Source: Gemmatimonadales bacterium
GTDB lineage: Bacteria > Gemmatimonadota > Gemmatimonadetes > Gemmatimonadales > GWC2-71-9
NCBI GenBank assembly: GCA_041613315.1
Contig: JBFJHJ010000006.1
Location: 30,439-94,438 of the forward strand
DNA length: 64,000 nt
Reading direction: 5' to 3'
The number at the start of each line of letters is the position of its first letter. The stretch's first letter is position 1. The position numbers are program-made. Below are positions 45,832 to 51,800 of this stretch, one piece after another.

Positions 45832-48800
45832 TGACCGGGTTTTGGTCGCCGGCGCCGGTCCTGATTGCGGGCCCGTGCGTCGTAGACCGGGAGGCGGTCA
45901 ACCTGGAGATCGCCGCCCACTTGGCCGAGCTCGGCACCCGGCTCGGCCTTCGCGTCGTGTACAAGGCGAGCTTCGACAAGGCCAACCGCGCTCGCGCGGA
46001 TGCGCCCCGTGGCCCCGGTCTCGAAGCCGGCCTGGCGGCGCTGGCCCGCGTGCGTGAGGCGACCGGCCTGGCCGTCCTCACCGACGTGCACGAGCCGCGA
46101 CACGTCGAGCCGGCGGGCCGCGTGGTGGACGCGCTCCAGATCCCCGCGTTTCTCTGCCGGCAGACCGACCTGCTCGCCGCCGCCGGCGGGACGGGACTCC
46201 CGGTGAATATCAAGAAGGGGCAATGGATGGCGCCCGAGGCCATGGCCGGTGCCGTGGACAAAGTACGGGTCGCGGGCGCCCGCGACGTCGCCGTCACCGA
46301 GCGCGGGACGTTCTTCGGATACGGGGATCTGATCGTGGACATGCGGAGCTTCGCGACGCTCCGCGCGGCCACCGGTGCCCCTGTGCTGTTCGATGCCACG
46401 CATGCTGTCCAGCGACCGGGCCGCGGGCCCGGCGGTGCGAGCGGCGGCGGCCGCGAGCACGTCCCGGCGCTGCTCGCGGCCGCGGCGGCAGCCGGTGCCG
46501 ATGGCTTTTTCCTCGAGACGCACCCGACGCCCGCCTCGGCTTTCAGCGACGCCGCGACCATGTGGCCGCTCGAGGAGCTCGAATCCGTCGTCGAGCGCGC
46601 GCTCGCCGTGTGGCAGGTGGCCCGGGAAGCGAGGCTCGTGCCGGAAGGTCTGCGATGAGCCGCGCTTGCCTGCGTCCACGGGACCGGCCGATGGCCCTGG
46701 CGGCGGTCGTAGCCGCGACGCTCATCACGGCAGCGGCGGGCGTGGGCTGCGGCGATGTGGGTCAGCCCCCCGTCGCGGAGAGCCTCCCCGACTCCGCAGA
46801 CCAGATCCTGTTCGGCACCAAGCTCAACCTCACGATCGACGGCGTCGTGCGCGTGAAGCTGGAGGCGGACACCGCGTTCTTCTACGAGGCGTCGCGCAAA
46901 GCGGAGCTCCGCACCGTCCGCGTGCAGTTCCTGTCGCCGCAGGGCCTGCTCAGCTCGACGATCACCTCGCACGAAGGAACCTATGACTGGCGGACCAACA
47001 ACATGGAGGCACGAGGCGACGTGTTAGCCGTCACGCCCGACGGGCGGCGGCTCACGACCACGATCCTCCGTTATCAGCGGGGCACCGACGAGATCTCGGG
47101 TCCCGAACCGTTCGTGTTTGATGCGCCGGATAGCCATCTCGAGGGCGACGCGTTCACCGCGGATCCGGACTTCCGCAACGTCGTGGCCACCCGTCCCCGG
47201 CGCGGACGCGCCGACGACGTCCAGGTGCGGGGCCGGTAGCCATGCCTCATCGGACACGGCGCGCCGTTGCACGCCTGCTGCTGGGGGCGGTGGGCGTGCC
47301 GCTGGCCCTCAACGCCCAGGACACCGGAAGTTGCCGGGTGGAGCTGGTGAGCGTGGGTGGCACGGGACGGCGGGTGGAGCTCGGCCCGGGTCGGATCCAC
47401 CAGTTCGCGGGGGGCGGCGTGTCGGCACGGTGCATCGGGCAGCCGACGACGATGCGGGCGGACAGCGTCGCGTGGTATTCGGAGCTGGACCGGATGGATT
47501 TCGTGGGGCAGGTCCGTTTTCGCGACGCGATGGCCACGCTCGACGCGTCGCAGGCGAGCTACTTTACCGCGGACGAGCGTCTGGAGGCCTCCGGCGCCGT
47601 GCGGCTGGTGAATCGCGAAACGGGCTCGGTACTGACCGGACCGCAGCTGCGCTACTTTCGGGCCGTCCCCGGGCTCCGCGACACGACAGAGTTGTTTGCG
47701 ACCCAGCGGCCCACCGTCGAGTACCGGTCGGCTGGCGCCCGCTCGGCGCCCCCCTACGTGATTGTGGGGGACCGTGTCCGTCTCCGGGGGAGCACCCGGG
47801 CCTGGGCCGGTGGACGCGTGACGATCACGCGTGAGGACTTCCGCGCGCGGGGCGACAGTGCGTCGCTGGATACCGGCCGCGGCGCGGGAATGCTCGTCGG
47901 GCGGGCGGAGGCGGCGGGACGCGATTCGGCGGGCTATACCATCCGCGGCCGGCGCATCGCGTTTCGCTTGACGGACAATCGCCTCACGTGGGTGCAGGCC
48001 CAGCAGGAGGCGTGGGCGACCAGCGCGGAGTGGCAGGTGCGCGGTGACACCGTCGAGTTCCACATCGCCGATGACCTGGTCCAGGGCGGCTCGGCATGGA
48101 GCGACACCGCGGCGCACGCCACGTCGACGCGGCATACGATCAGCGCGGACTCGCTCCTGATCGTGGCCCCGAACCAGGTTCTGACGGAGGTGCGCGGCTT
48201 TGGCGCCGCCCGCGCGTTCTCGCGCGTGAATTCCGGCCCCCAGCCGCGCCCCGACGCCGCGCCCGGGGACTCGGCGCGTCCGGCGATGCCGGATGACTGG
48301 ATGTCGGGAGACACCGTCGTGGCGCGCTTCGACGACACGTTGTTGGGACGACGTGCGCTCGCCTTGCTCGAAGCGCGCGGGGATGCTCGAGCCCTTTATC
48401 ATATCTTCGACCCGGCCGGCAACGGCGGGACGCCCGCCATCAACTATTCGCGTGGCGACAAGATCACGGCCCGTTTCCGGGACGAGGTGCTGCAGGCGGT
48501 GAACGTGGTGGGGGCCGCGGACGGCGCCTACCTCGAACCGAGCGTCCGGCGGCCGCCATGAACGATCTGCTGAACGCGGCCCTGGCGGGCAAGGACCCGT
48601 CGCTGGCGCTCGCGGTGGGGGCGCTCGTGGCCGGCGCTGACGAGGGCGGGGCGTCGCCGTTTGGCGACCTCGCCGTGTCGTACCGCGAGGGCTACCTCGC
48701 CTTGCGGCGTGAGGAGTGGGGCGAGAGCGCGCGCCTCTCCGGCACGCTCTCGGTGGACGAAGCCCGGCGACACCTCGTGCAGTCGGTGCTGCCGCGCCTC

Positions 48801-51800
48801 GTGGGGGAGGGGATCGTGGAGGCGCTGCCTGAGGCGCCCGACGAGGCCACGTCCGTGCGGCTCGCGCCCGGGGTGTGGGAGCAATTCGCCGGCGACCGCG
48901 ACGCGGCGCGGCAGCACCTCTTCGGCCTGGCGCTCGAGGCGGTGCGGGCAGTCGAGACGGAGGGCCGGCGCCGCGTCACGTCGGGAAGCACCCTCTCCGG
49001 CCGTGGCCTCACCAAGGTGTATCGTCGTCGCCGCGTGGTGGACGACGTTCACATCGAGCTCCGCCAAGGGGAGATCGTCGGCTTGTTGGGCCCGAACGGG
49101 GCTGGGAAGACGACGACGTTCTACATGATCGTGGGGCTCGTCCGGCCCGATGCCGGGCGCATCTACGTCGACGGCGAAGACATCTCCGGCCTCCCGATGT
49201 ACCGGCGTGCGCGCCGGGGCATCGGCTATCTCGCCCAGGAGCCGTCGGTGTTTCGGAAACTCACCGTCGAGCAGAACGTCCTTGCGATTCTCGAGACCCT
49301 CAGATTGTCGGACGCCGAGAAGACGAGGCGACTGGAGGGACTGCTCGACGAGCTCTCGATCAAGCATCTGCGGGACGCCAGAGCCTACAAGCTCTCGGGG
49401 GGCGAGCGGCGACGGCTGGAGATCACCCGGGCGCTCGTCACGGACCCCAAGTTCATGCTGCTCGACGAACCGTTCGCCGGGGTCGATCCGATCGCGGTCC
49501 ACGACATTCAGACCATCGTCGGTGGGCTGCGACACCGGGGCATCGGCGTCCTGATCACCGATCACAACGTCGAGCAGACGCTCGACATCGTGGACCGGGC
49601 CTACATCATGTTCGAAGGGAAGGTCCAGGTGGCCGGGACGGTCCGCGAGCTGGTCTTCGACGACCGCGTCGCCGATCGGTATCTCGGACCGACGTTGACC
49701 TCTCGACTCCGCGAGCGACTGGGAGCCGCCGCGTGAAGCCGTCGCTGCAGCAGACTGCGGCGCTGAAGCAGGAACTGCGCATGAATCCACGCCTGTATCA
49801 GGCGATGGATCTCCTGCACATGCCCGTGCTCGATTTGCAGCAGCACTTGAAAGCGGAGCTCGAGGTGAACCCGTTTCTCGAGTTGGTGGAGGATGCGGAG
49901 CTCGACCCCGAACCGACGGAGGTGGAGCCGGCCGCCGAGGACGAGAAGACCGACGATGAAGTGGACTGGGAAGACATCCTCCTGGACGGCTTCAGCGTCG
50001 GCGGGGCGCGGGCCGAAACCGAGGAACGGGAGTGGTATCAACCTGTCGCGGTCGAGGCGCGGAGCCTCGTGGACCATCTCTGGGACCAGCTCGTGTTGCT
50101 GAATCTGAGCGAGCGGGACCTGTTCGTGAGCGATGAGCTGTTGGGGAACCTGGGAGAGGACGGCTACCTACACGGGACCCTCGACGAGGTCGCGGCGGGC
50201 GCGAACCAGCGCATCGCCGAACATGCCGCCCGGAGCGACGGGGAAGCGCCGCCGCCACCGCCGTTCACACTGCAGGAGGTAGAGGGCGTCCTCGCGCGGC
50301 TGCAGGGGCTGGATCCGCCCGGTGTTGGCGCCCGGGACCTCCGAGAGTGCCTCAAGCTCCAGCTCGAAGACGCCGGCCAGCGCGACACGCTCACCTATCG
50401 CCTCGTGGACGAAGCCTTCGATGACCTGATCGCCCACCGGTGGAGCGATCTGGCCAAGCGCTACGGCCTCGATCCCAAAGAGGTCCAGGCGGCGGCCGAC
50501 GAGCTGGCCAAGCTCGATCCCAAGCCCGGCCTTCGGTTCCTGAGCACGGATCAGGAATACGTCGTTCCCGACCTGATCGTGGAGCGAAACGACGGCGAGT
50601 ACCGGGTGTTCCTCAACGACGGCGGCATGCCGCGGCTCCGCATCAGCCGGGTGTACCGCGACATCGCGGGGGACAAGAAGAAATTCGTCGGTGAGAACCG
50701 GGAGTTCATCACCGAGAAGCTGAATAGCGCGCAGTGGCTGGTGCAGGCGATCGAGCAGCGCCGGCAGACGATGCTCAAGGTGATGAACTTCATTGTGGAT
50801 CGTCAGCGCGAGTTCTTCGACAAAGGTATCGAGCACCTGAAGCCGCTCACGCTGCGGGAAGTGGCCGAGGTCGTGGACCTCCACGAATCCACGATCAGCC
50901 GCGTGACGAGCCAGAAGTACGTGCAGACCCCGCGGGGTCTCTACTCGCTCAAGTTCTTCTTCTCGAGCAGCCTGGGGACCACCAGCGGCGAGGACGCCAG
51001 CTCCCGGGCCGTGAAGGCGCAGCTTCAGAAGCTGGTGAGCGATGAAGATCCCGCCAGTCCGTTGACCGACGCTGCGCTGGTGGAAGCGCTGCGGGAACGC
51101 GGTGTCCGCATCGCCCGGCGCACGGTGGCCAAGTACCGGGATCAGATCGGTGTGCTGCCCGCCCGGATGCGCAAACGGGTATGACGCTCGCCGACGGCGG
51201 GATGCCGGTCGAGGTCAGCGTGCTCGTCCCGGCGAAGGACGAAGCCGAGAATCTGCCGGAGTTCGTACGTCAGTGTCGTGCCGTGCTCGGCGACGTCCCC
51301 TACGCCTGTGAAGTCGTGATCGTCAACGACGGCAGCGAAGACGACACGGGCGCCGTGCTCGAGCGACTCAGTGCCGATCACCCGTTCGTGCACGTCGTCA
51401 CGCACCGCACCCGGCGGGGCATCGCCGACGCCCTCAAGTCGGCCGGTGAGGTCGCGCGCGGACGCATCCTGGTGTTCTACCCGGCGGATCTACAGTTTCT
51501 GCCCGCCGAAATCCCCCGCCTCGTGGAGCCGATTCGCTCGGGCGAGGCGGACATCGTCACGGGAGCGAAGCAGGGCGAGTACGACAAAGCCCTGGTGTCG
51601 TCGGTGTACAATGGGCTGTGCCGCTGGCTGTTCGGTGTCCGCGTGACGGACCTGAATGCGGTCAAGGCGTACCGTCGGGAGGTCATGGAGGTCGTGCCGG
51701 CCCGGCCGGATTGGCACCGGTTCATGGTCGTGATCGCCGCGGCAGACGGCTTTACGGTGACCGAGCGACCGGTGACGTTGCACCCGCGTCGCGCGGGCCA

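Follow-up and report, generated by a model that had tools for sequence, protein, structure and literature searches.

The current analysis describes a form of LptB, the ATPase of LPS export, in which a separately folded winged-helix domain precedes the ABC core, and which is encoded by most of the Gemmatimonadales genomes examined. Few ABC ATPases are as well studied or as uniform as LptB, for which no accessory domain is known to have been described. No report of the fusion was found in the literature searched, which left aside most subscription journals and all supplements; the paper searches of the earlier note gave none either. In the stretch of 64,000 nucleotides analyzed here (the window), lptB occupies 48558..49736 on the + strand and encodes 392 aa, consisting of the winged-helix domain (residues 1-134, 48558..48959), a variable linker (residues 135-145, 48960..48992), and the ABC ATPase core (48993..49736) with its Walker A, Q-loop, signature, Walker B, D-loop, and H-loop motifs, all on the + strand. 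The gene order previously proposed for this operon is evident here as well: lptC (46655..47239; TIGR04409 52.6 bits, cut-off 38), a long LptA-family gene of 439 aa (47242..48561), lptB, and rpoN (sigma-54; 49733..51184; over the TIGR02395 cut-off) are contiguous on the + strand, with the stop of the LptA-family gene overlapping the lptB start and the rpoN start overlapping the lptB stop. Upstream in the same + strand run lie a cytidylyltransferase, a CTP synthase, and a DAHP-synthetase-I family gene (43469..46658), the first and last of which we take to be KdsB-like and KdsA-like, respectively. The 439-aa LptA-family sequence of this genome yielded no direct family match of its own; its orthologues match PF03968 in 20/34 cases and their profile matches LptH (E 7e-5).

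The assignment as a true LptB with a 145-aa N-terminal extension, as the earlier note had it, is confirmed by a TIGR04406 score of 347.8 bits against a cut-off of 240, the sole such match in the genome. The catalytic motifs are invariant in 118/118 fused proteins. Also invariant are F232 and R233, which, when aligned to solved LptB, presumably correspond to F90 and R91 of E. coli. In E. coli LptB, F90 and R91 lie in the groove and contact the coupling helices of LptFG (PMC5082905). Because 295 of 301 genomes have a single lptB match, and because two LptF/LptG genes are present in this one, LPS export would have to run on the fused form, and the gene is probably the working LptB of this cell. 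Canonical LptB (TIGR04406; PDB 8FRP, 4P31, 6MHU) has the same ABC core, catalytic motifs, lptC-lptA-lptB-rpoN setting, and single copy, but its solved chains span only 241-282 aa, whereas the protein of this window adds a folded 134-aa domain and a linker.

The N-terminal domain is predicted with confidence to fold as a winged helix (pLDDT 91), as had been claimed for these ~140 residues. It comprises helices 3-9, 14-26, 35-54, and 66-83 and strands 32-34 and 99-102, followed by two extra C-terminal helices (104-110 and 114-133). Its conserved residues are D13, S15, R43, D67, R70, P79, R80, L81, W107, and R114; the four arginines are conserved at 78-96% and could contact phosphates. The median dN/dS of the domain is ~0.27, with values below 1 in all 42 of the (non-independent) pairs, and by this measure the domain is under purifying selection; its dN/dS is about four times the core value of 0.07. 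This genome contains no second copy of the domain (best E 0.65 among 23,750 frames), and no stand-alone form was seen in the best 150 of 262 representatives, with 98 ending too early to judge, in a search of one range of length classes of the 90% database.

The likeness to Cdc6/Orc1 suggested by the earlier note is apparent at the level of the fold, as the domain exhibits the winged-helix fold of the Cdc6/Orc1 subtype; bacterial sulfur-binding domains (SBD) of the same fold group are the next fold matches, and the DNA-contact residues of neither family are recognizably kept. In Cdc6/Orc1 (PDB 1FNN, 1W5S, 5UJM), the winged helix is C-terminal to an initiator AAA+ domain, whereas in LptB it is N-terminal to an ABC ATPase. 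The two share 9-22% identity, and the LptB domain has no conserved wing arginine, while Orc1 DNA binding requires both the HTH and wing arginines (PMC3089459). R70 (78% conserved) may stand for the guanine-contacting arginine of the HTH. At the sequence level, no PDB match lay under E 0.067, nor was Cdc6/Orc1 among the best 25 of 30 Pfam families listed. With respect to the SBD, H116 and R/K117 open helix 1 (PMC6224610) and the H-K-P motif is invariant in 9/9 SBD rows, whereas LptB domains have D-x-S where SBD have H-K/R-P, with a histidine at position 13 in just 1/118. Proline at position 77, aligned with the sulfur-pocket floor residue P165 in a register taken from a non-significant alignment, occurs in 0/118. 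A profile comparison of the domain with nine SBD sequences was likewise not significant (hhalign probability 0.2%). SBD nucleases (ScoMcrA 5ZMO, Hga 8H0L, NF045808) contain an HNH domain, unlike fused LptB, and a search of 61 relatives with NF045808 matched its HNH half only. Foldseek returned nothing at E<=0.001 against the PDB and viral models, scans of 74 members with Pfam, PADLOC, and PHROGs gave scattered one- or two-member matches or none, and every ESM Atlas score was below 0.9. The best viral Foldseek matches were two 850-aa Siphoviridae proteins (E 0.001-0.01).

When examining the distribution of the fusion, it is evident that it is present in 170/197 genomes of Gemmatimonadales, but also in 24/84 genomes from other orders; it was found in 0/19 genomes of other classes. 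The earlier interpretation is supported in part: the LptB fusion and the winged-helix fold are upheld, the likeness to Cdc6/Orc1 holds for the fold only, and the range reaches beyond the order that the note named. The state of the domain changes at least 16 times on a 175-row LptB+RpoN tree, which is best read as one gain in the ancestor of the main Gemmatimonadetes clade, then about 15 losses, so that the domain is dispensable. The tree of the domain itself broadly follows families, two losses fall within genera whose other members retain the domain (G089 and G195), and the lptB start overlaps the lptA stop in the long and the short, domain-less forms alike. On these patterns, the domain is vertically inherited and its losses are clean deletions.

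A new observation beyond the LptB fusion is a paralogue of the domain. In some Gemmatimonadaceae it is joined to a gene that probably encodes a tyrosine pseudokinase and that lies in a Wzx/Wzy exopolysaccharide cluster. The paralogue matches the LptB domain at 98.3% in hhalign (E 2.4e-14) and nests among Gemmatimonadaceae LptB domains on a long branch, and it may have changed function. It is known from 24 clusters and is rare, being whole in 1/301 genomes. In 4/4 loci, the fused gene is flanked by a Wzy-like gene and an EpsV-like co-polymerase (NF041864 E 1e-78, under its cut-off). The C-terminal domain of the paralogue is probably a tyrosine pseudokinase, with weak resemblance to BY kinases (TIGR03018 E 0.017-0.082 for three members; hhalign 0.2-0.3%; kinase-family matches overall E 0.017-0.3). 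According to PMC12004946, the EcpK/WzeX pseudokinase of Myxococcus, an EpsV partner and possible counterpart of this domain, is similarly small, lacks a Walker A motif and Tyr tail, and is encoded in a Wzx/Wzy cluster beside an EpsV-like co-polymerase. EcpK is described there with an unstructured N-terminus, whereas the paralogue carries a winged helix.

Based upon these features, we tentatively favor the view, with a probability of roughly 0.45, that the domain is a flexibly tethered cytoplasmic protein-interaction module. A separately folding winged helix of the Orc1/Cdc6-SBD fold group joined the LptB N-terminus once and, as a non-essential module, would bind either itself or a different protein, thereby localizing or tuning the Lpt machine. 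A loose tether is consistent with the low-confidence linker (pLDDT 59 for block 131-140), a W107-to-L146 spacing that varies from 35 to 116 aa across 124 loci, and a pTM of 0.72 for full-length LptB vs 0.86 for the domain alone. Reuse on the probable pseudokinase of a Wzx/Wzy exporter suggests a partner that is not part of LptB and has a broader role in the export of envelope polysaccharides; no interaction partner was found in this analysis. It is conceivable, albeit doubtful, that the domain is a shared tag on LptB2FGC and the Wzx/Wzy co-polymerase partner, directed to one common target (a scaffold protein or chromosomal DNA) and co-positioning or co-regulating LPS and exopolysaccharide export.

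We consider it unlikely that the domain has kept an ability to bind DNA or RNA, by which it would either anchor the membrane-bound Lpt complex at the nucleoid or regulate, for example, the lpt-rpoN operon from the membrane. Its best fold matches are all DNA-associated winged helices, four arginines are conserved, and K/R at position 12 (58/118) and R at 14 (39/118) fall at the helix 1 start, the H116/R117 site of SBD. However, position 13 is D/E in 108/118, the P165 site lacks proline in the sole, non-significant alignment, and the wing has no conserved basic residue: no column from 87 to 99 exceeds 19% K/R, 52/118 proteins have any K/R there, and 115/118 have D/E. The net charge is <=0 in 118/118 fused proteins, and the paralogue is acidic in 24/24 as well. 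Charge is nevertheless a weak argument, since nine annotated or profile-matched SBD range from -12 to +4, with six <=0, and true SBD can thus be net acidic.

Distinctly unlikely is a regulatory role within the LptB molecule itself, in which the domain would dock on the core near residues 323-328 (49524..49541, + strand) and damp or gate ATP turnover. This stretch drifts most after domain loss, being the top window over 13 disjoint loss/retention pairs; G323 occurs in 91/122 domain-bearing vs 7/33 domain-less ingroup rows and H326 in 81/122 vs 6/33, counts that are inflated by kinship, and the pTM of the full-length model is compatible with loose docking. The signal is borderline, however (label-flip P 0.053), 3/13 loss lineages retain the motif unchanged while some domain-bearing rows lack it, the linker length varies widely, and reuse on a non-LptB protein is not accounted for. 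Modeling of the domain together with an ATP-bound dimer of the LptB core was uninformative (score 0.02) and carries no weight here. A test for co-variation with RpoN singled out no window (P 0.50). It is quite improbable that the domain is a near-neutral passenger, kept mainly because it must fold without harming an essential, translationally coupled gene. The clean losses, two of them inside otherwise retaining genera, and the elevated dN/dS would fit, but the domain has persisted over deep divergence in most of the order though deletion is evidently easy, its polar residues are conserved, and it is independently conserved in the paralogue. An artefact, with translation of LptB beginning only near residue 140 and skipping the frame ahead of it, is extremely improbable: although 109/124 loci have an in-frame ATG, GTG, or TTG among the 30 codons that precede the core, no such position is common to more than 40/124, which led us to reject a conserved internal start, and purifying selection, the confident fold, and the overlap of the lptB start with the lptA stop in long and short forms all oppose it.

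The module is dispensable and its function putative, which sets a limit to its importance. About 15 natural deletions, some within one genus, offer ready comparisons for a partner search, and its occurrence on an exopolysaccharide gene as well hints at a module that can move from one envelope machine to another. Our results suggest an undescribed add-on for envelope assembly. In most members of a large clade of soil and water bacteria, LptB bears a folded domain under selection, which points to a level of control or positioning in LPS export that is absent from model organisms.

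The 392-aa protein encoded by lptB (window 48558-49736, + strand) is a member of LptB, in agreement with its earlier description as the LPS-export ATPase. Its core (residues 146-379) scores 347.8 bits against TIGR04406 (cut-off 240), the best PDB matches of this core are solved LptB chains (E 3e-81), and the catalytic motifs are all invariant in 118/118 fused proteins. The host genome encodes one lptB and two LptF/LptG genes. The lptB ATG overlaps the stop of an upstream gene (47242-48561, + strand, 439 aa, signal-peptide-like start), while the lptB stop overlaps the rpoN start. 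The 439-aa product yielded no direct family match; because 20/34 of its orthologues match PF03968 and the orthologue profile matches LptH and LptA, the lptC-lptA-lptB-rpoN order proposed previously holds. lptA and rpoN lie 5' and 3' of lptB in 127/128 domain-bearing loci, and domain-less relatives exhibit the same order. This LptA-family gene is unusually long, as are its orthologues, which suggests several jellyroll units. Eight consecutive genes (window 43469-52146) begin with presumed Kdo-pathway genes, continue with lpt and rpoN, and end in a glycosyltransferase; 6/7 junctions are four-base stop/start overlaps, with a 2-base gap between lptC and lptA. Glycosyltransferases (GT2, GT4, GT2) and a YfhO-like membrane protein are found 3' of rpoN (window 51181-57328), and the first GT2 is kept there in most relatives with enough flank.

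The N-terminal extension of the sole LptB is a real, selected, and vertically inherited winged helix that is dispensable. The earlier note had described a ~140-aa winged-helix domain that lacks a Pfam match, is fused in frame with LptB, and accompanies an ABC domain in database homologues, all of which was borne out: neither Pfam nor NCBIfam has a match for residues 1-145, AlphaFold predicts the fold confidently (pLDDT 91.0, pTM 0.86), the domain is in frame with the LptB core in 75/76 domain-bearing loci among the first 80 surveyed (L001-L080), and 64/65 homologues of residues 1-142 contain the ABC domain. In one locus (L057:2498-3665, genome G053), a linker frameshift splits the domain from the core, probably through assembly error, since a same-genus relative (L070) is intact. 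As starts in this survey were picked partly by TGA overlap, a cleaner count comes from 130 further loci, 54 of which contain the domain; in 48/54 the start lies a single base ahead of the stop of the upstream gene. Among the 150 listed of 262 profile matches, 40 continue into the LptB core, 98 stop early, and 12 are odd, being for the most part frameshifts or chimeras. At the level of titles and abstract beginnings, no report of the fusion was found in the literature; genome-survey supplements might list the extension.

When examining its distribution, a domain profile built from 74 sequences matched 195/301 genomes of the phylum, lptB itself being found exactly once in 295/301. Matches occur in 170/197 genomes of the order (101/125, 66/69, and 3/3 by family), 24/84 from the class's remaining families (6/6, 1/1, 1/23, 13/47, 3/4, and 0/3), and 0/19 from other classes; neighboring phyla sampled alongside were without the domain. 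As many as four genomes that are unpublished (G057, G097, G157, G182) are counted in these tallies; none of them was used for alignments or trees. Conservation across the order is therefore broad, as the earlier note claimed, but neither complete nor confined to it, given the matches elsewhere in the class and about 15 losses. In the order, 24 genomes encode lptB without a domain match, and the 12 inspected directly have a plain LptB with 3-51 extra residues. A 175-row FastTree phylogeny, built on the LptB core together with RpoN, restricts the domain to one 155-row clade (support 100) and requires at least 16 changes; these are most simply explained by a single gain with about 15 losses, although many forks are open. 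Two losses (G089, G195) fall within genera otherwise keeping the domain. A tree of the domain alone broadly tracks families, and database labels place its bearers in Gemmatimonadales, Gemmatimonadaceae, and Longimicrobiales. In three domain-less LptB (L128, L161, L167), Pro/Glu/Ala-rich extensions of 85-96 aa replace the winged helix. One genome (G227; L215, L216) has the domain in two near-equal copies, one at a contig end, reflecting either duplication or a binning artefact. On the tree, two loci labelled Gammaproteobacteria and Bacteroides (L122, L136) cluster with family f7 of Gemmatimonadota and with Zixiibacteriota, and are probably mislabelled or misbinned.

Our tentative reading (probability about 0.45) is that the domain would serve as a flexibly tethered cytoplasmic protein-interaction module, with a partner outside LptB. 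The full-length model (pTM 0.72), its linker (pLDDT 59), and a W107-L146 span ranging from 35 to 116 aa all fit a loose tether. A role as a nucleic-acid tether or regulator is doubtful. Published work attributes Orc1 DNA binding to HTH and wing arginines (PMC3089459) and that by the sulfur-binding domain (SBD) of phosphorothioate-dependent nucleases to H116, R117, Y164, and P165. R43, R70, R80, and R114 are kept at 78-96% in the LptB domain, and its net charge, never positive (118/118, mean -5.7), cannot alone exclude DNA binding, because SBD controls span -12 to +4. However, K/R stays at or below 19% in every wing column, 115/118 domains have D/E in the wing, position 13 is D/E in 108/118, and position 77 is proline in 0/118 (the SBD register coming from a non-significant alignment). 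DNA binding is disfavored on these sequence features, and the earlier label "Cdc6/Orc1-like" stands for the fold only: the domain has its fold in common with Cdc6/Orc1 winged helices and probably with the SBD, whereas membership beyond fold is supported for neither.

Less probable still is intramolecular modulation of the LptB ATPase. Core residues 323-328 drift most after domain loss (G323 in 91/122 domain-bearing vs 7/33 domain-less proteins; H326 in 81/122 vs 6/33), a mere hint of docking nearby. However, the label-flip P is 0.053 across 13 disjoint loss/retention pairs, three loss lineages retain the motif, and the loose tether also speaks against this role. RpoN, put through the same comparison, yielded P 0.50. 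The median dN/dS is 0.27 for the domain vs 0.07 for the core (domain below 1 in 42/42 non-independent pairs). It is quite improbable that the domain is a near-neutral passenger. An annotation artefact is highly improbable, as dN/dS of the domain is 0.27 and no internal start position is common to more than 40 of 124 loci.

Beyond LptB, a whole domain copy, which groups with LptB domains of genus g4, occupies residues 349-471 of P0155, a TIR_2-containing protein of 1339 aa; either a conflict protein has truly acquired it or the sequence is an assembly chimera. A paralogue of 323 aa (P0215; L217:1384-2355, genome G287) was a second domain match (E 3e-13), with further loci at L240:6402-13087 and L280-L282. 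A further 23 clusters of 274-333 aa go with it, three of which are Gemmatimonadaceae by their source labels. Homology links the paralogue's N-terminal part with the LptB domain (hhalign 98.3%, E 2.4e-14), and this part forms a long branch nested among Gemmatimonadaceae LptB domains. The equivalents of D13, S15, L78-P79-R80-L81, and W107 are kept, R43 is lost, and the domain is acidic in 24/24. The fusion is rare (whole in 1/301 genomes and 3/7 metagenome loci), and all fused loci (4/4) have it flanked by an EpsV-like co-polymerase on one side and a Wzy-like gene on the other, in a Wzx/Wzy cluster also encoding Wza, a flippase, and glycosyltransferases. A small open frame apparently separates it from the co-polymerase gene. 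Its C-terminal part resembles EcpK in size, absence of a Walker A motif, and neighborhood, EcpK being a pseudokinase that partners EpsV (PMC12004946). Since sequence support is weak, we infer that this part may be an EcpK-type tyrosine pseudokinase. In 6 other loci this part has no winged helix attached, so that the winged helix was in all probability joined to a pre-existing gene. The domain has been reused once, on a gene for exopolysaccharide export.
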